56,914 nucleotides of DNA, taken from contig CAXMOO010000089.1 in assembly GCA_964195005.1 (NCBI GenBank), forward strand, positions 1 to 56,914, read 5' to 3'. Position numbers and translations under genes: made by a program. The number at the start of each line of letters is the position of its first letter. The first letter of the stretch is position 1. Under the pieces are notes generated by a model. It worked only from the letters and a program-made list of their open reading frames with translations, was not told where the DNA came from and made no database searches. Below are positions 19,795 to 49,066 of the stretch, in pieces. The DNA comes from an uncultured Gammaproteobacteria bacterium (GTDB lineage Bacteria; Actinomycetota; Acidimicrobiia; Spongiisociales; SHLN01).

Positions 19795-20001
19795 CGAACC
19801 AGCAGTTGATTGTTGGGCACCGCCTTGTGCAAGGTCACCCGGAGGCAACAATTGTGGTGACGGCAAGCTGCCGGCATTCCTGCCGTTGGCGGGCACCACC
19901 CACCTTTGCTCGCCTTCCCCTCCCACTGCCTGCGAAGACTCCGCTAGGCAGGAGGGGATAAGCCGGCCAGACCAGCACCGAACCAGCAGTTGTTGTTGGG
20001 C
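19795..20001 (+). repeat. pair of direct repeats cgaaccagcagttg(a)ttgttgggc (19795..19818 and 19979..20001)
   Basis: The copies are 23 and 24 nt, differ by one indel, and lie 184 nt apart inside the recR/thiolase intergenic region. Confidence 0.6.
19917..19960 (+). repeat. structured G/C-rich repeat (family 3), copy 1
   Basis: cccctcccactgcctgcgaagactccgctaggcaggaggggata resembles 37141..37184 (ctcccactccgctccgaagactcccctccgcaggaggggat). It contains CCTGC/GCAGG and CCCCT/AGGGG pairings. Confidence 0.6.
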
Positions 20002-20019
20002 TGAGGGCGAAGGAGAAAG

Positions 20020-20056
20020 CTAGGGCGCAGGAACTCTCACGATCATCGCGTCGCCT
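20020..20056 (-). repeat. orphan duplicate of the last 37 bp of the thiolase gene, including its stop codon
   Basis: ctagggcgcaggaactctcacgatcatcgcgtcgcct is 37/37 identical to 20133..20169 (the codons for GDAMIVRVPAP*). Confidence 0.9.
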
Positions 20057-20132
20057 GCTTGTTGGCTCTTCGCCTGGTAGGTCATCGCAGTGTCGATGGG
20101 GCCCCAACCCCATCGACCGGCGACGCTCCGTC
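20057..20132 (+). mobile_element. 76-bp hairpin-containing insertion-like element (family 1), copy A
   Basis: The core ttggctcttcgcctggtaggtcatcgcagtgtcgatggggccccaaccccatcgaccggcg is homologous to 47510..47570. It has a 10-bp perfect stem, GTCGATGGGG (20092-101) with CCCCATCGAC (20108-117). It is flanked by 37-bp direct repeats. Confidence 0.55.
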
Positions 20133-21320
20133 CTAGGGCGCAGGAACTCTCACGATCATCGCGTCGCCTTGGCCGCCGCCGCCGCAGAGCGATGCTCCGC
20201 CGATGCCGCCGCCTTGATGGCGCAGCGCGTTGATCAACGTAACGATCAAGCGCGCTCCTGTCGCACCCAGCGGATGTCCGAGGGCAACCGCACCGCCGTT
20301 GACGTTTACCTTGTCATGCGGAAGATCGAGCATCTTGGCAGACCACAATGCCACCCCACTGAAGGCCTCGTTGATCTCCACCAGATCGAGGTCGGCGGGG
20401 GACAAGTCCGCCGTCTTGAGAGCCGTCTTCAGCGCCTCGGCGGGCCGTTCATGCAGGGTGGCGTCGACGCCGCCGATCTGCCCGTAGGAAAGAATCTCGG
20501 CCAGGACGGGTAATCCTTCAGCATCTGCGGCATCAGCGTCGGCCACCACAACCGCAGCTGCGCCGTCGGAAATCTGCGAGGCGTTGCCTGCCGTGATCGT
20601 GCCCTCAGCGCTGAAAGAGGCTTTGAGTGCGCCCAGGGTCTCAGCCGTGGAGTCGGGTCGGATGCCCTCGTCCCGGTCGACGGTCACCGGGTTACCTCGT
20701 CGCTGGGCCACTTCCACAGGGACGATCTCGTCAATAAAGGCGCCTTGGGAGGCCGACGCCGCTCGCTGATGGCTGGCGGCGGCCCACTCGTCCTGTTCGG
20801 ACCGGTCGATGCCGAGTCGGGCGCTATTCACATCGGACTGGGCCCCCATCGTGCACTGATCGAAGGAACAGAAAAGACCATCGTGTTCCAGCGCGTCGAT
20901 GATCCGGCCCTCGCCGTAGCCCATGCCGTATCGACCCTCGGGCAGAAGGTAGGGGGCTCCGGTCATTGACTCCATGCCGCCGGCGACGACAAACGTCGCT
21001 TCCCCCAGCCGGATGTCTTTGTCGGCCCAGCCGATGGCCGTCATCCCCGACAAGCACACTTTGTTGATGGTCGTGGCAGGCACCGTCAATGGGACTCCAG
21101 CCTTGGCGGCGGCCTGGCGGCTGGTGATTTGGCCGGTCCCGGCCTGGATGACGTGGCCAAACAGGACCTCGTCGATCTTCTCAGCTCTCAACCCGGCGCG
21201 TTCTAACGCGGCGCGGATGGCCACGGCTCCCAGGTCGACCGCCGATACGTTACGGAAGACGCCCCCGAACTTGCCAATCGGCGTGCGGGCAATGGAGGTA
21301 ATAACCGAGCTCATCGTCAA
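20133..21320 (-). CDS. acetyl-CoA C-acetyltransferase (thiolase II)
   Basis: 395 aa. ...INKVCLSGM... holds the active-site Cys. NVNGGAVALGHPLGATGARL and GGASLCGGGGQGDAM are the C-terminal thiolase signatures. Confidence 0.92.
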   Translation of the reverse strand: MTMSSVITSIARTPIGKFGGVFRNVSAVDLGAVAIRAALERAGLRAEKIDEVLFGHVIQAGTGQITSRQAAAKAGVPLTVPATTINKVCLSGMTAIGWADKDIRLGEATFVVAGGMESMTGAPYLLPEGRYGMGYGEGRIIDALEHDGLFCSFDQCTMGAQSDVNSARLGIDRSEQDEWAAASHQRAASASQGAFIDEIVPVEVAQRRGNPVTVDRDEGIRPDSTAETLGALKASFSAEGTITAGNASQISDGAAAVVVADADAADAEGLPVLAEILSYGQIGGVDATLHERPAEALKTALKTADLSPADLDLVEINEAFSGVALWSAKMLDLPHDKVNVNGGAVALGHPLGATGARLIVTLINALRHQGGGIGGASLCGGGGQGDAMIVRVPAP

Positions 21321-28638: not shown

Positions 28639-28712
28639 CGGGACGTGGCGCAGCTTGGCAGCGCGCAGCGTTCGGGACGCTGAGGTCGCGGGTTCAAATC
28701 CCGCCGTCCCGA
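28639..28712 (+). tRNA. tRNA-Pro (anticodon CGG)
   Basis: It folds by hand into a cloverleaf. The acceptor is CGGGACG/CGUCCCG (C1:G72). The D arm is GCGC-AGCUUGGCA-GCGC. The anticodon arm is CAGCG-UUCGGGA-CGCUG. The variable loop is AGGUC and the T arm is GCGGG-UUCAAAU-CCCGC. The discriminator is A73 and no CCA is encoded. Confidence 0.9.
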
Positions 28713-28768
28713 CCTCAAATCGGTTCACCTGATCTGCTGAGGGATTTGAACCCTCAAGAGAAAGCAGG

Positions 28769-28793
28769 TCAAATCCCGCCGTCCCGACCTCAA
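28769..28793 (+). repeat. direct repeat of the tRNA-Pro 3' end (att-like scar)
   Basis: tcaaatcccgccgtcccgacctcaa is 25/25 identical to 28694..28718 (T loop through 6 nt past the tRNA end). A T-arm-like palindrome, gagggatttgaaccctc (28739..28755), lies between the copies. Confidence 0.8.
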
Positions 28794-37236: not shown

Positions 37237-37998
37237 ATGGACGTCACCCGCATTGTCGCTCCCAACCCGGGACCCTTTACCGGCGCGGGGACAAATTCGT
37301 ACATCGTGACCTCGGGCTCGGAGGCTCTGATAGTCGACCCCGGCCCCCTGATTTCATCGCATTTGGACGCTTTGCGGGCGAGTCTCGTGGGACTAGACAC
37401 GGTGGGGATAGCCGTCACCCATCATCACCAGGATCACGCCCCGGCCGCCAACCCTCTGGCCGCCGAATTGGGTGTCGTCACCTACGGTTTTGGGGACTTC
37501 GGGGGCTTTCAAGCAATCTCGCCGATTGCCGATGGAGAAATAATTCACATAGGGAATGAGGCGGTCACGGTGATCAGTTCGCCAGGGCATACCCCGGATT
37601 CGCTGTGCTTTCTGGCCGAAGATGCCCTCTTTGCCGGAGACACCGTGATGTCGGGCTCCACGGTCGTGGTCGATGACATGACCGCGTATATGGCGACGCT
37701 CGAGCGCCTGGCCGCCCTGGCTGTTGAGGAGATCTACCCCGGCCATGGCGAGCCGATCCACGGCGGGCCTGCTGTCATCGCGGCCTACATTGCCCACCGG
37801 CAGGAAAGGGAGAGCCAAATCGTGGCGGCCCTCGCCGCCGAGGCCCACTCGCTCGACAGGATCATCGCCGTGGTCTACGGCGATATTGACCCGGCTTTGC
37901 GGCCTCTGGCTCGCCAGTCGGCGCTGGCCCACCTCCACAAGCTGGTCGAGGAAGGCCGGGCGGCACTAGACGGTGACGTTTGGAGATCGTTGCTATGA
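37237..37998 (+). CDS. MBL fold metallo-hydrolase
   Basis: 253 aa. The metal-binding motif is VTHHHQDHAP. The pattern is glyoxalase II/hydroxyacylglutathione hydrolase-like (...SPGHTPDS..., ...PGHG). Confidence 0.85.
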   Translation: MDVTRIVAPNPGPFTGAGTNSYIVTSGSEALIVDPGPLISSHLDALRASLVGLDTVGIAVTHHHQDHAPAANPLAAELGVVTYGFGDFGGFQAISPIADGEIIHIGNEAVTVISSPGHTPDSLCFLAEDALFAGDTVMSGSTVVVDDMTAYMATLERLAALAVEEIYPGHGEPIHGGPAVIAAYIAHRQERESQIVAALAAEAHSLDRIIAVVYGDIDPALRPLARQSALAHLHKLVEEGRAALDGDVWRSLL

Positions 37999-39158
37999 GA
38001 CGCTCTCTGGCCGTTGTCTTCGCAGTGAGTGTGCTTGGGCTCACCGTGGTCGCTCCGGCCGCGGCCAGTCTCGAAGACGACCTGCGCGAGGCCCGACTGG
38101 AGTTGCAGTCCGCCGTCACCGACCTGGAGGCGGCCACCTGGGATCACCGGATCGCGTCTGACACCGGGGGCCTGATGCAGTTCGAGCATGACGAACTGTT
38201 GGAGGATGCCGCCCTTCTCACTTTCGACTACGAGGCGAGTCGAGATACTGCCTTGGCCCGTTCCCTGGAGGTGTACCACGGGCCGGCCGGGACTACCTGG
38301 GCAGAGCGCTCAGTGGCTGGTGTCTATTTGGAGGCCGCCCTTGTCGCCGACCGTGAGACCCTTCTTGCCAAGGCCGGCAGCGTGCGGGTGATGGATGAGT
38401 ACCTCGAGCAGATGCAGGCGGAGATCGACGCGTACGAGGCGGCCGCGGTGGAGGCCGAGACCCGGATGACCGAGCTGGCCGAGGATTTGGAGAGGCTCGA
38501 GGTCGTTGTGGCCGAGATCTCCACGGCCTACGAGGCCGAAGCGGCGTACAACGCCACCACCACGACTACGACGACCACCACGACCACCACCGTTCCATCT
38601 ACGACCACCACCACTGTTCCATCTACCACGACCACGACGACCGTGGGAACCGGAACAACCACCACCACTGTGCCGGACACGGGGCCGACTACAACGACCA
38701 CGACGACCCCCACTACTACGACCACCACGACTCTGCCTCCGCCGGTGGTTCTCGATGGCATGACATGCCCGGTGGCAGGGCCGGTCCACTTCATCGACAG
38801 TTTCGGCGCTCCCCGGTCTGGAGGCCGCACCCATCAAGGAGTCGACATGATGGCGGATCGCGGCACACCACTTGTTGCCATCGAATCGGGAACGATCGGA
38901 CGTCTCAACAACGGCGGCCTGGGCGGCATCACCATCTGGTTCCATGGCGACGGAGGGGACCAGTACTACTACGCGCACCTGGATGATTGGTCGCCCGGTC
39001 TCGCTGCGGGCCAGCACGTCGACGTCGGCACTCTGGTCGGCTATGTCGGCAGCACCGGTAATGCCCCCGACGCCTACCCCCACAATCACTTCGAGATTCA
39101 TCCCGATGGGGGAGCGGCGATCAATCCCTACCCCACGGTCGCCGCCCTCTGCCTGTAG
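37995..39158 (+). CDS. secreted M23 family metallopeptidase with coiled-coil and poly-Thr linker
   Basis: The ATG at 37995 overlaps the upstream stop (ATGA). The signal peptide is MRRSLAVVFAVSVLGLTVVAPAAAS. The M23 motifs are HQGVDM...YAHL...GSTGNAPDAYPHNHFEI. Confidence 0.88.
   Translation: MRRSLAVVFAVSVLGLTVVAPAAASLEDDLREARLELQSAVTDLEAATWDHRIASDTGGLMQFEHDELLEDAALLTFDYEASRDTALARSLEVYHGPAGTTWAERSVAGVYLEAALVADRETLLAKAGSVRVMDEYLEQMQAEIDAYEAAAVEAETRMTELAEDLERLEVVVAEISTAYEAEAAYNATTTTTTTTTTTTVPSTTTTTVPSTTTTTTVGTGTTTTTVPDTGPTTTTTTTPTTTTTTTLPPPVVLDGMTCPVAGPVHFIDSFGAPRSGGRTHQGVDMMADRGTPLVAIESGTIGRLNNGGLGGITIWFHGDGGDQYYYAHLDDWSPGLAAGQHVDVGTLVGYVGSTGNAPDAYPHNHFEIHPDGGAAINPYPTVAALCL
38556..38732 (+). 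repeat. low-complexity Thr-codon tract (ACC/ACG/ACT) with internal repeats of accaccaccRttccatctac
   Basis: It encodes TTTTTTTTTTTTVPSTTTTTVPSTTTTTTVGTGTTTTTVPDTGPTTTTTTTPTTTTTTT. Confidence 0.85.
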
Positions 39159-46667: not shown

Positions 46668-47384
46668 ATGGAGATTTCGGGGAAGAGAGCACTGATCACA
46701 GGGGCAGCGCAGCGTGTCGGTAAGGGCGTAGCCCTGGCGCTTGCCGCGGCCGGTGCCGATCTGGTCCTTCACTACAACCGATCGGCGGATGCCGCGGCCG
46801 CCACGGGAGCGGAAGCCGAAGCGTTGGGCGTGCAGGTGGAGCTGCGACAGGCCGACCTCTCCGACCCTGCCTCAGTCGATGCGATCTTGTCTGAACCGGC
46901 GGACATCTTGGTGAACAGCGCCGCCGGATTCCCGGAGGACTCGCTGCTCGATGTGACGCCAGAAGCTTGGATCAGGACCCTCACTATCAACCTCAGTTCG
47001 GTTGTGTTCCTGACCCAGGCCTTCGCCAAACGGCTACCGGCGGACCGGAACGGTGTTGTCACAAACATGACCGATTGGAAGACGCAGCGGCCGTATACCG
47101 ACCTCCGCTTCAGTTACACGATCAGCAAGGGAGGTGTGGACACGTTCACCAGAGTCGCTGCTTCGGAGCTCGCCCCCCGTATTCGCGTGAACGCAGTTGC
47201 CCTCGGTGTCATCCTGCCCCCACCTGGTGCCGAAGACGGGTACGCCGAACGGCTGGCAGCGCGAACCCCGTTGGAGAGGGTCGGCGGAGTGGAAGTTGTT
47301 GCCGAAGCCGTTCTCCAACTGATCCGCAACGATTTCATCACCGGCGAGATCCTTCGAGTCGACGGTGGCGCTCATCTCCGCTAA
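46668..47384 (+). CDS. short-chain dehydrogenase/reductase, pteridine reductase/FolM-like by context
   Basis: 238 aa. The cofactor motif is ALITGAAQRVGKG and the YxxxK motif is FSYTISKGG. It lies directly upstream of folB and folK-folE. Confidence 0.75.
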   Translation: MEISGKRALITGAAQRVGKGVALALAAAGADLVLHYNRSADAAAATGAEAEALGVQVELRQADLSDPASVDAILSEPADILVNSAAGFPEDSLLDVTPEAWIRTLTINLSSVVFLTQAFAKRLPADRNGVVTNMTDWKTQRPYTDLRFSYTISKGGVDTFTRVAASELAPRIRVNAVALGVILPPPGAEDGYAERLAARTPLERVGGVEVVAEAVLQLIRNDFITGEILRVDGGAHLR

Positions 47385-47392
47385 CTAACTAA
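47382..47392 (+). repeat. TAACTAACTAA: three tandem TAAs, one in each frame, at the end of the SDR gene
   Basis: TAA occurs at 47382 (the SDR stop), 47386 and 47390. Confidence 0.9.
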
Positions 47393-47458
47393 CGTCTCAC
47401 TCATGGCAGCGTTGTTCTTTACTTCCCCCTCACGGAAACGGGGGTCAAGACCGTGACC

Positions 47459-47502
47459 TCTGAGCTCGATCAGATTCACATTCGGGACCTCACCGTCCAC
47501 GC
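47459..47502 (+). repeat. orphan duplicate of the folB 5' end
   Basis: tctgagctcgatcagattcacattcgggacctcaCcgtccacgc is 43/44 identical to 47592..47635. It is preceded by its own GTG at 47453. Confidence 0.9.
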
Positions 47503-47591
47503 TGTGTTTTTGGCTCTTCGGCTGACGCCTCATCGCTGTGTCGACGGGGCCCCAGCCCCATCGACTGGCGTGGTCGGGGGAGCTTCTGGTG
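47503..47591 (+). mobile_element. 89-bp hairpin-containing insertion-like element (family 1), copy B
   Basis: The core ttggctcttcggctgacgcctcatcgctgtgtcgacggggccccagccccatcgactggcg is homologous to 20062..20122. The stem pairs GTCGACGGGG (47540-49) with CCCCATCGAC (47556-65). The element is flanked by 44-bp direct repeats. Confidence 0.55.
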
Positions 47592-47969
47592 TCTGAGCTC
47601 GATCAGATTCACATTCGGGACCTCAGCGTCCACGCGATCATCGGGATCAATCCGTCTGAGCGGACCCAGCCGCAGGACGTTGTCGTCAACGCCACCCTCT
47701 TTGTCGACACCCGTCAGGCCGGAGTGAGCGACGAGATGCACGATTCTGTCAACTATTCGACCATCACCAAAGCCATGCATGCCCATATCGAGTCGGCGGC
47801 TCCTGGGTTGGTCGAACGCCTCGTCGCCGATTTGGCCCGCATTTGCTTCGAAACCGACCACCGGGTCAAAGAAGTTGAGATCACAGCGGAAAAACCGGGG
47901 GCGGTGACTTTCACCCGCTCCGTCGGGGTCACGATTCACCGCACGCGGGCCGAGGTGATGGAGCCATGA
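47589..47969 (+). CDS. folB: dihydroneopterin aldolase
   Basis: The GTG at 47589 is preceded by GGGGGAG. (M)[39 protein letters not shown]...DSVNYSTI follows the FolB pattern. The ORF track starts at 47538, inside the repeat element. Confidence 0.85.
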
Positions 47970-49066
47970 CCCGGGTCGTCGTCTCGGTCGGAAGCAATAT
48001 CGACAAGGAATCGAACCTTCCGGCTGCGATTGCTGCCCTCCAGCAGCATGACCACATCACATTGATTCAAACGAGCGACATCTTCGAATCACCGGCCATG
48101 GGGGGCGACTATCCACCGTTTCACAACGCTGCGGTCCTGCTCGAGACCGAGCTGGCGCCAGAAGAGCTGATCGCTTCCCTTAAATCCATCGAAAGCGCCC
48201 TCGGCCGAGTTCGAGAGGAAGACCCCAACGCTCCGAGAACTATCGACCTCGACATCATCTTGTACGACGACTTACACAACGCAGAACTGAAGATCCCCGA
48301 TCCTCACCTCGACGCGTATGCGTTCGTGGCGATCCCGGCAGCCCAGGTAGCAGGGGATTGGGAGATACCGGGCCGGAATAGAACAGTCGCTCAGATCGCT
48401 GAGTCAACGGCGGCAGGCGAACTACGAAAGGTAGACATGTCAGACAAAAAGGAGATCTCTCGGGACGAGGCCTTTGAGGAGTACGGACCGACGGATGAGT
48501 CGTTCAACCCTCGATATGAGGCTCTCGTTCGAGAGCAGCTCGAGATACTCGGGGAGGACCCGGAGCGGGATGGCATTAAGCGAACGCCCTTTCGCGTCGC
48601 CAAGTCGATGTCGTTTCTTACGAAGGGCTACACCCAGAGCCTCAAAGAAGTCATTAATAACGCCATTTTCGAGTCGCCGGACTCTGAAATGGTGATGCTG
48701 AAGGACGTCGAGTTCTATTCGATGTGCGAGCATCACATGCTTCCGTTCTTCGGGCGAGCTCACGTCGCTTACATTCCCGACGGCCGGGTGATTGGAGTCA
48801 GCAAGCTGGCCAGGATCGTTGACGTTTTCGCCAGACGGATGCAGATCCAGGAGCGGCTCTCGAATCAAGTTGCCGATGCTCTTATGGAGTGTCTTGATCC
48901 GCTCGGGGTGGGAGTGGTGATGGAAGCCGCCCATCTCTGCATGTTGATGCGGGGAGTGCAGAAGCAGAACAGCGAGATGGTCACCTCGGCATTGCGCGGC
49001 TCTTTCAAGTCAGATGCTCGCACCCGGAGTGAGTTCATGAATCTGGTAGGTCACGGACTGCGCTGA
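47966..49066 (+). CDS. folK/folE: bifunctional HPPK (FolK) and GTP cyclohydrolase I (FolE) fusion
   Basis: 366 aa. The N-terminal HPPK reads [10 protein letters not shown]...IFESPAMGG...[10 protein letters not shown]...GRVR...[13 protein letters not shown]...IPDPH. The C-terminal FolE reads [10 protein letters not shown]...[46 protein letters not shown]. The start overlaps the folB stop (ATGA). Confidence 0.88.

Follow-up and report, generated by a model that had tools for sequence, protein, structure and literature searches.

How can a gene remain expressed when foreign DNA has come to lie at its own start codon? The question is raised by folB, which encodes dihydroneopterin aldolase, on contig CAXMOO010000089.1 (assembly GCA_964195005.1) of an uncultured bacterium of the class Acidimicrobiia; the whole of this 56,914-nt stretch is hereafter called the window. 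Between a short-chain dehydrogenase (SDR) gene and folB lies a small hairpin element, e2, with a copy of the folB start on either side. We conclude that e2 is a copy of a dispersed, non-autonomous, GC-rich, largely palindromic and non-coding hairpin-forming repeat (~65-90 nt) of uncultured Acidimicrobiia. What appears to be new here, judging from the sequence, is a repeat resembling mycobacterial interspersed repetitive units (MIRUs) and miniature inverted-repeat transposable elements (MITEs), with exceptionally long, co-evolving target duplications and a putative function at folB. We favour, with moderate confidence, an account in which such a repeat made a long target duplication, folB is expressed through relay frames that cross the insert, and the repeats have since evolved in concert.

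The duplicated folB start and its empty site

A preliminary description of this locus had claimed that the first 44 bp of folB recur 133 bp upstream with one mismatch. This was confirmed: the two copies (47459-47502 and 47592-47635, 133 nt apart) are identical at 43/44 positions, the lone mismatch being a C/G at 47492/47625. The repeat can be extended to the GTG itself via a 3-nt indel lying right after the start codon (GTG ACC TCTGAG.. vs GTG TCTGAG..), and a related lineage, L070, also has a 3-nt indel right after its start codon (ATG GAG.. vs ATG GCT GAG..). The folB start codon may have been duplicated along with the target, not brought in by the element. With coding arrays excluded, the window (56.9 kb) holds three non-coding direct repeats of at least 20 nt spaced within 600 nt, namely the folB pair, one of 37 nt at 20020/20133 whose copies match perfectly, and one of 25 nt at tRNA-Pro. 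The only reading frames of the element, which measures 76-89 nt, are short read-through ones, with no transposase inside. The identical folB arrangement was recovered in independent ENA, JGI and Logan assemblies and is therefore not an assembly error of this contig.

The claim that the insertion has not inactivated folB also stood. A full 126-aa FolB is encoded from 47589 and is intact in 36/36 members of its 90% cluster; FolB homologues start 1-3 residues ahead of LDQIHIRDL, with which the N-terminus in the window agrees. Only the downstream start yields a full FolB, because the frame of the upstream GTG (47453) runs out of frame into the element. Comparison of the upstream regions of relatives revealed both empty and filled sites.

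The empty site was found in L071 (87% FolB identity), where the SDR stop is followed by 17 nt and then ATG GCT GAG CTT GAT, present as a single copy and without a Shine-Dalgarno (SD) motif. A simple filled site is seen in L070 (88% FolB identity), consisting of the old ATG with 40-46 nt of folB, the element and then ATG GCT GAG.., the upstream copy being placed exactly where the empty site has its gene start. The window has the structure of L070 plus an older hairpin unit (47423-47447) between the ancestral ATG at 47403 and the upstream repeat; this unit has a single match in the window, a homologous stretch in L075 and a related unit in L066/L076. In L067, L066/L076 and L075 the site is degraded, with the hairpin deleted or replaced, the upstream repeat missing or shortened to 7 nt, and further small hairpin units gained. 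The right end of the element joins folB at the same nucleotide in L070, L066/L076 and L067. The spacer between SDR and folB is filled with other small GC-rich hairpin units of several kinds, such as CTTTCCTTCCCCTTCAGGGGGAAG and CCCGACCTCGGCCTTTGGCCTCGGCC, in L066 (560-690), L075 (1030-1200) and L076 (1040-1200). The SDR-folB junction is a hot spot for small repeats. Taken together, sequence comparison indicates that the insertion first described in the window is ancient and common to related species, and that the locus holds other small hairpin units nested with it.

A target duplication made at insertion gives the order repeat-element-repeat (X-E-X) with unique flanks, whereas a tandem duplication is expected to yield E-X-E-X. 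The X-E-X order between unique flanks was observed in the window, L001, L062, L063 and L070. At L060, L061, L024, L047 and L052 no long flanking repeats above shuffles were found; a decayed flanking repeat seen by eye at L060 did not rise above shuffles either. A search for an excised allele in the window's species, using nine constructed FolB sequences beginning MTSELDQ.., found none of them in the collection. One candidate for an empty site, L005, was explained by alleles in which both repeats carry ACC.

Putative relay frames between the SDR gene and folB

The SDR stop lies inside a three-frame stop motif, TAACTAACTAAC (47382-47393), which is kept in L066, L067, L070, L071, L075 and L076, lineages differing by ~25% in coding DNA. 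That the ancestral folB start had no SD motif and stood 17 nt past this three-frame stop points to termination-reinitiation coupling with SDR. In position, the ATG at 47403 is the homologue of the folB ATG at the empty site and of the first ATG in L070, L075, L066 and L067. In the window it opens a first upstream open reading frame (uORF1), whose TGA (47454-47456) overlaps the GTG at 47453 as GTGA. This GTG had been reported to open a 47-codon ORF, here uORF2, and its peptide is exactly as quoted. The reported overlap of its stop with the folB start was also found (GTGTCTGA), but the TGA lies at 47594-47596 and not at 47593-95, its T standing 5 nt beyond the first base of the folB GTG.

Comparison with relatives supports a coupled leader as originally proposed, but in the window this leader would take the form of a two-step relay, uORF1 then uORF2, as read from the sequence. 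A single uORF from the ancestral ATG (36-64 codons) stops at the same +5 TGA in L067, L066 and L075; the relay uORF of L076 stops at +10, and the leader of L070 is in frame with folB. At all five of these other filled loci the ancestral-ATG frame is stop-free up to the folB start, while the remaining two frames contain stops in 9/10 cases, despite very different insert content. Shuffling gave a probability of a stop-free frame of 0.2-0.38 per locus and a joint probability of ~0.007 (L066 and L076 counted once). As a side observation, gene callers are misled here, calling ORFs from an ATG inside the hairpin at 47538-47969 (+) and, at the sister copy e1, at 19835-20113 (-), with the products MGPQPHR..-FolB and MGLGPHRH..; L062 4202-4480 is likewise miscalled, and the relay uORF of L075 (1014-1208) is called as a 64-aa gene.

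It had further been suggested that the element supplies a ribosome-binding site in the form of GGGGGAG, 7 nt upstream of the folB GTG. The motif is present, with a spacing of 6 nt, and every filled lineage has a G-rich SD-like run at a constant distance upstream of the new start. The same run at the same spacing occurs in L067, L073 and L070 and is absent from the empty site L071. However, it is missing from the copies e1, L060 and L061, and is therefore not an intrinsic feature of the family; at folB it may have evolved in place. Folding predicts that the run pairs with the left arm of the element in the window and in L070.

We infer that the relay frames carry ribosomes across the insert, so that folB stays expressed. 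Before the insertion, the folB ATG 17-18 nt past the SDR stop and without an SD motif was probably translated by termination-reinitiation. The old start would now open short frames that move ribosomes over the inserted DNA: uORF1 would end on the GTG of uORF2, and uORF2 would traverse the element and stop 5 nt inside folB. Ribosomes on uORF2 would melt the element hairpin predicted to pair with the G-run and would restart at GTG 47589, aided by GGGGGAG.

Table 1. Features of the folB region and of the sister element copy in the window.
Feature	Position	Strand	Remarks
SDR (short-chain dehydrogenase), upstream cistron	46668..47384	+	Pfam adh_short on identical products; stop TAA 47382-47384
uORF1	47403..47456	+	17 codons from the ancestral folB ATG; 18 nt past SDR stop
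Older small hairpin unit	47423..47447	+	TTCCCCC..GGGGGTCA; different repeat type, nested upstream of duplication
Upstream copy of folB start	47453..47502	+	GTG ACC + 44-nt repeat 47459-47502
uORF2	47453..47596	+	47 codons through element; TGA 47594-47596
Inserted element e2	47503..47588	+	86 nt if GTG counted in repeat; 89 nt (to 47591) otherwise
Conserved 65-nt family core	47509..47573	+	TGGCTCTTCGSC.. TCATCGC .. hairpin .. YGGCG; covariance model 89.1 bits, E=3e-18
Central hairpin	47540..47565	+	GTCGACGGGG-CCCCAG-CCCCATCGAC
Shine-Dalgarno-like GGGGGAG	47576..47582	+	6 nt separate run from folB GTG 47589
folB, dihydroneopterin aldolase	47589..47969	+	126 aa (PF02152); stop overlaps next ATG (ATGA at 47966)
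Downstream repeat copy	47589..47635	+	start codon + 44 nt; genuine first 16 folB codons
folK (HPPK)-folE (GTP cyclohydrolase I) fusion	47966..49066	+	366 aa; ATG overlaps folB stop; fusion conserved in relatives
Sister copy e1 with repeats	20020..20169	+	e1 (20057-20132) between perfect 37-nt repeats 20020-20056 and 20133-20169

The element family and the age of its insertions

The insert at folB had been described as homologous to the stretch at 20057-20132 and in the same orientation, and this held on closer analysis. The 65-nt cores of e2 and e1 are 80% identical, and a covariance model built from five element copies (TGGCTCTTCGSC..TCATCGC..GTCGAYGGGGCCCCARCCCCATCGAC..YGGCG), with which the window was scanned with filters off, gave 89 bits for e2 and 85 bits for e1. 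No further copies were detected in the window, the next matches being these same hairpins read on the reverse strand (16.5 and 16.3 bits) and the best match elsewhere reaching 10.5 bits. A 28-nt hairpin pattern, GTGTCGAYGGGGCCCCARCCCCATCGAC, also occurs in the window at e1 and e2 only (expected 0). The core is laid out as (A/T)TGGCTCTTCGSC, a short spacer, TCATCGC, a 10-bp stem with the loop CCCCAR, and YGGCG, and the complete unit is predicted to fold into a long imperfect hairpin; the left arm, GGCTCTTCGSC, pairs imperfectly with the right arm. A single C/A mismatch in the e2 hairpin on the + strand becomes a G-U pair on the - strand, and the stem of the L070 copy carries two compensatory base-pair changes. 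The outer ends differ among e1, e2 and the L070 element, and e2 and the L070 element have in common a subfamily-specific 26-nt left part. The repeat around e1 consists of the last 34 nt and the TAG stop of a minus-strand thiolase gene (20133-21314); e1 sits between convergent genes and runs antisense to thiolase, and e2 has the sense orientation relative to folB.

In a scan of one genome per species, the hairpin with a CCCCAR loop was confined to metagenome-assembled genomes (MAGs) of Acidimicrobiia. A metagenome scan with the exact hairpin gave only two loci, both of the same subfamily as the window copies. One lies at the 5′ end of a pyruvate-dehydrogenase E1 gene, where the element is read in frame (L060), and the other between a small divergent gene and infA, upstream of infA (L061). 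A sister subfamily, B, with an identical hairpin (GTCGACGGGGCCCCAACCCCATCGAC), is found immediately 3′ of tRNA-Val in other Acidimicrobiia MAGs. There it forms arrays of 2.5-3 tandem units of 90 or 126 nt (L007 3514-3783, L011 6791-7131), in which the element is constant and what varies looks like diverged flanking repeats. A single unit stands at tRNA-Val in L052 (1275-1345), and a unit with a partial unit in L047 (1290-1420), with no tRNA within the stretch examined. Viral contigs gave no match to the hairpin, and Rfam searched at a permissive threshold gave no family matching the element region. Neither a promoter pattern nor, on either strand, a terminator-like site was found at the element, and no T-run follows the hairpin. 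Six-frame element peptides searched against a large protein database shared words with 8000 candidates, none with E<=10, these peptides being too short for significance. Pfam analysis of 10 larger window ORFs, including one beside tRNA-Pro, revealed no integrase or transposase. The dispersed copies, together with the lack of a mobile-element gene among these ORFs, point to a non-autonomous hairpin-forming repeat family.

Several observations bear on the age of the insertions. In folB+folK DNA the SDR-linked lineages differ by 17-29% among themselves and by 33-34% from the outgroup L073, which has another upstream gene; when a neighbour-joining tree is rooted on L073, the empty L071 lies outside the filled group, a weak placement given the near-star branching. 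The folB repeats within a genome differ at 1/44 positions (window) or 2/40 (L070), compared with 7-10/44 between orthologous copies, and both copies of a genome carry its own substitutions. At the second locus, a sister species with 90% thiolase identity (L077, from the same sample as L075) carries the thiolase insertion with the same junctions as the window; its repeats are 36/37 identical and five differences from the window are present in both copies. The first base of its non-coding repeat keeps the window state and the coding copy differs. Within the window's species, the non-coding thiolase repeat shows single private changes in L062 and L063. Three contigs of separate assemblies (L004, L064 and L077) carry on as repeat-element-repeat-element up to where they end. 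Between genomes the element cores share 80-88% identity, vs ~75% for neighbouring coding DNA between relatives; e2 is 82% identical to the L070 element and 80-82% identical to copies at unrelated loci.

That the same element/gene junctions recur in related species at both loci argues that the insertions are old, and the near-identity of the repeats within a genome, combined with lineage-specific substitutions common to both, argues for concerted evolution. The simplest reading of these sequences would be one old insertion per locus (folB, thiolase), subsequently homogenised. The element would have entered the 5′ end of folB in an ancestor, duplicating 44-47 bp from the start codon (or just after) to codon 16, and e1 would have inserted at the stop codon of thiolase, duplicating 37 bp. 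Unequal exchange in a minisatellite of [repeat + element] would then have kept the flanking repeats near-identical. In each case one duplication boundary coincides with a coding boundary, i.e. the folB start codon or the last base of the thiolase stop.

A 9-mer, CGATCATCG, occurs in the window only at 20040-20048, 20153-20161 and 47635-47643, all on the + strand. It lies inside both thiolase repeat copies (8 nt from the edge) and across the right edge of the folB repeat, and it resembles the TCATCGC of the element; its post hoc probability is ~0.02, with a difference of 16 nt between the offsets. Either a target motif or mere chance may account for it.

Known systems and alternative explanations

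MIRUs were reportedly described by Supply et al. in 1997 and have been treated in reviews. They are GC-rich units of 40-100 bp with internal inverted repeats that lie in operon junctions, and they carry tetranucleotide flanking repeats (PMC3184786; PMC12548453). They insert at start codons, their ORFs overlapping neighbouring gene ends and so preserving coupling (PMC12548453; PMC3184786). The e2 family comes closest in behaviour to these units. At 86-89 nt, e2 falls within their size range and shares their GC-richness, internal inverted repeats, lack of a transposase and actinobacterial phylum. It separates SDR from folB and is co-oriented with them (+) in an operon-like series of genes whose stops and starts overlap. 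Its open frames overlap the neighbouring start and stop (GTGA; GTGTCTGA) with the same geometry in L067, L066 and L075, and filled and empty sites are found between relatives. Tandem copies, as in variable-number tandem repeats of MIRUs, may be represented by the contig ends of L004, L064 and L077, possibly short-read artefacts, and by the 2.5-3-unit arrays of subfamily B. However, the flanking repeats measure 44-47 nt (folB), 40-46 nt (L070) and 37 nt (thiolase) instead of the 4 bp of MIRUs, the element together with a piece of gene would form the repeating unit, and e1 has an antisense orientation between convergent genes, away from any operon junction. The host class is Acidimicrobiia, and the likeness is one of organisation, with no sequence relation expected. 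Therefore, of the resemblance to MIRUs drawn in the preliminary description, the start-codon insertion with coupled ORFs stands, but with repeats of 37-47 bp instead of 4 nt and a host of another class the family is an analogue and not a member.

Other small repeats and mobile elements share single traits. Like MITEs, the element is short, non-coding, dispersed and foldable into a long hairpin, with direct repeats of its target and an empty site (L071) to set against filled ones (L070 and the window). Unlike MITEs, it has weak terminal inverted repeats and outermost bases that vary from copy to copy, its target duplications exceed the usual 2-10 bp several-fold, and a parent insertion sequence (IS) was not recognised. 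Long duplications are known from IS1549/IS1634 (a variable 8-514 bp, without a mechanistic model; PMC2266710) and from the IS1202 subgroup (27-28 bp; bioRxiv 10.1101/2022.12.17.520857). The duplications of 37 and 44-47 nt fall within the 8-514 bp of the former, and IS1549 comes from an actinobacterium; these are, however, autonomous elements of 1.5-2 kb with a transposase, and neither such a gene nor matching ends were found here. The link to IS1634/IS1549 and IS1202 would thus be one of duplication length only, and a transposase making long, variable staggered cuts, as in IS1549/IS1634, would by analogy be the nearest known model for mobilisation. In the literature we found no report of such long duplications around an element of less than 100 nt. 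Rickettsia palindromic elements (RPEs), RUP and SPRITE are repeats fused in frame with genes (PMC3184786). As with RPEs, open frames allow a small palindromic repeat to be tolerated in or at the ends of coding sequence, and the elements of L070 and L060 are read in frame; RPEs become part of the protein, whereas here the gene's own start is duplicated and the window element is read in an out-of-frame leader. REP/BIME sequences are also short GC-rich intergenic hairpins, sometimes clustered, but they make no target duplication, and no conserved GTAG-type tetranucleotide or RAYT gene was seen here.

Several other identities were tried and rejected. A CRISPR array does not fit two repeat copies per locus, a conserved 'spacer' and repeats that are pieces of host genes, and CRISPR-like or Cas1-type integration does not fit an insert that is a conserved family and a repeat of variable length. 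Integrase att sites would not differ between loci as these repeats do. A REP/RAYT element was dismissed on account of the long duplications, of GTAG occurring in e1 only and not in e2, L070, L060 or L061, and of no such gene among the ORFs checked. An intrinsic terminator was dismissed for want of a terminator-like site on either strand and of a T-run.

Four other explanations deserve to be weighed against the account of a long target duplication, relay frames and concerted evolution. The mini-ORFs might be incidental, folB initiating independently at GTG 47589 via GGGGGAG and the frames being by-products of GC-rich sequence and of the TGA in folB codons 2-3 (xCT GAG). The open ATG frame in 5/5 other filled loci (the others being stopped in 9/10 cases), the precise GTGA overlap of uORF1 and uORF2 in the window, and the ancestral site without an SD motif, which suggests a long dependence of folB on coupling, make us doubt this, even though frames of such length are stop-free in 20-38% of shuffles per locus, any +2-frame ORF ends at a +5 TGA that is intrinsic to the folB codons, a G-run stands at SD distance in all filled lineages, and the L070 leader is simply in frame with folB. 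The main alternative to an old insertion with homogenisation is that each lineage has recently seen repeated site-specific insertion, or excision followed by re-insertion, into one and the same target. It would account for repeats far more alike within a genome than between orthologues, for e2 being as close to copies at unrelated loci (80-82%) as to the L070 element (82%), for CGATCATCG at the two target sites only within the window, and for folB being a hot spot of several kinds of small hairpin units. We nevertheless consider it unlikely: element/gene junctions fall at the same nucleotide in several lineages at two loci, e2 and the L070 element share their 26-nt left part, the degraded remnants in L066, L067 and L075 fit the decay of one old insertion, the non-coding repeat of L077 has its first base in the window state with the coding copy differing, and no excised allele was found in the species.

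Two further possibilities seem to us improbable, and to the same degree. One is that the hairpin is a host cis-acting RNA or DNA signal (an mRNA stabiliser, terminator, attenuator or protein-binding site) which, having spread, plays a regulatory role at folB. The stem and loop sequences are conserved across Acidimicrobiia genera, the cores are more alike (80-88%) than neighbouring coding DNA (~75%), stem changes are compensatory, and e1 directly follows a stop codon as subfamily B directly follows tRNA-Val; on the other hand, orientation relative to transcription differs (e1 antisense to thiolase, e2 sense to folB), no T-run, terminator-like site or Rfam match was found, and several lineages have deleted or replaced the hairpin at folB while retaining the gene. 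The other is that the flanking repeats are secondary, arising by replication slippage or tandem duplication round a pre-existing hairpin, to give a 133-nt minisatellite of 1.3 copies. However, a tandem of [element + gene end] gives E-X-E-X and not the X-E-X of the window, L001, L062, L063 and L070, the upstream copy of L070 lies exactly at the gene start of the empty site, and TRF finds no array in the window. The contig ends that read repeat-element-repeat-element, the true tandem arrays of a related unit at tRNA-Val and the concerted evolution of the flanking repeats would all be expected of such an origin.

A number of points weigh against the account that we favour. Open frames of this kind are fairly likely in DNA of 62% GC, and independence of the loci is incomplete; folB might be initiated from the SD-like run without further help; structure predictions around this run are no better than shuffles in the window (z = -0.8); and translation of the uORFs and their coupling to folB are deduced from sequence. 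No master element was found, the 57 kb contain only two copies, and the two large DNA scans were restricted to exact hairpin patterns. Long flanking repeats occur only where the insert overlaps a coding end (e1, e2, L070, L077). The contig ends reading repeat-element-repeat-element could be artefacts of short-read assembly. Furthermore, the outermost 6-25 nt are not conserved between copies and the terminal inverted repeats are weak, which is unusual for a MITE mobilised by a transposase. A highly improbable reading is a novel mover that cuts ~four helical turns apart with one cut at a coding boundary (the first base of the folB start codon, the last base of the thiolase stop). Its masters would be co-transcribed with tRNA-Val, as in a SINE-like (short interspersed nuclear element) retroposition or templated repair, which non-conserved outer ends and a variable duplication length would fit, and its products would form a self-homogenising minisatellite with relay ORFs.

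The loci form a natural series (empty, simple filled, nested and decayed, with one- and two-step relays), which suggests that 120-205 nt of foreign DNA can be accommodated at a start codon within an operon if an open frame reaches the next start. The 'harmless insertion' strategy of MIRU type can thereby be tested beyond the mycobacteria, in a class that is abundant and uncultured. It is unusual for an element of less than 90 nt to be flanked by duplications of 37-47 bp that stay alike over species-level divergence, and this raises the question of the enzyme and of the homogenisation. In practical terms, the units break short-read assemblies, several contigs ending at them, and mislead gene callers, which place starts within the hairpin and annotate uORFs or antisense ORFs as genes.

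Lastly, some other repeats were observed. A third repeat-insert-repeat lies at 28694-28793 in the window, where a perfect 25-nt repeat is the T-loop/3′ acceptor half of tRNA-Pro(cgg) (28639-28714); the insert is a 50-nt hairpin, its minus strand resembles the T-arm and 3′ end of another tRNA, and it has no similarity to e1 or e2. The next gene is a CNNM/CorC transporter, not an integrase. A genome scan in which the loop was left free mostly caught unrelated perfect hairpins of Micrococcales, myxobacteria and Acidobacteriota. Similar perfect hairpins, GTCGATGGGGCC..GGCCCCATCGAC, occur in myxobacteria and Acidobacteriota (L016, L030 (Minicystis rosea), L033 and L058), and GTCGATGGGGAG..CTCCCCATCGAC hairpins occur just after gene ends in Isoptericola, Microbacterium and Brachybacterium (many Micrococcales loci, L006-L059); these are probably unrelated repeats or terminators. 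At 38545-38737 the window also contains a coding tandem repeat, mostly of ACC, ACG and ACT (Thr) triplets, within ORF 37980-39158.

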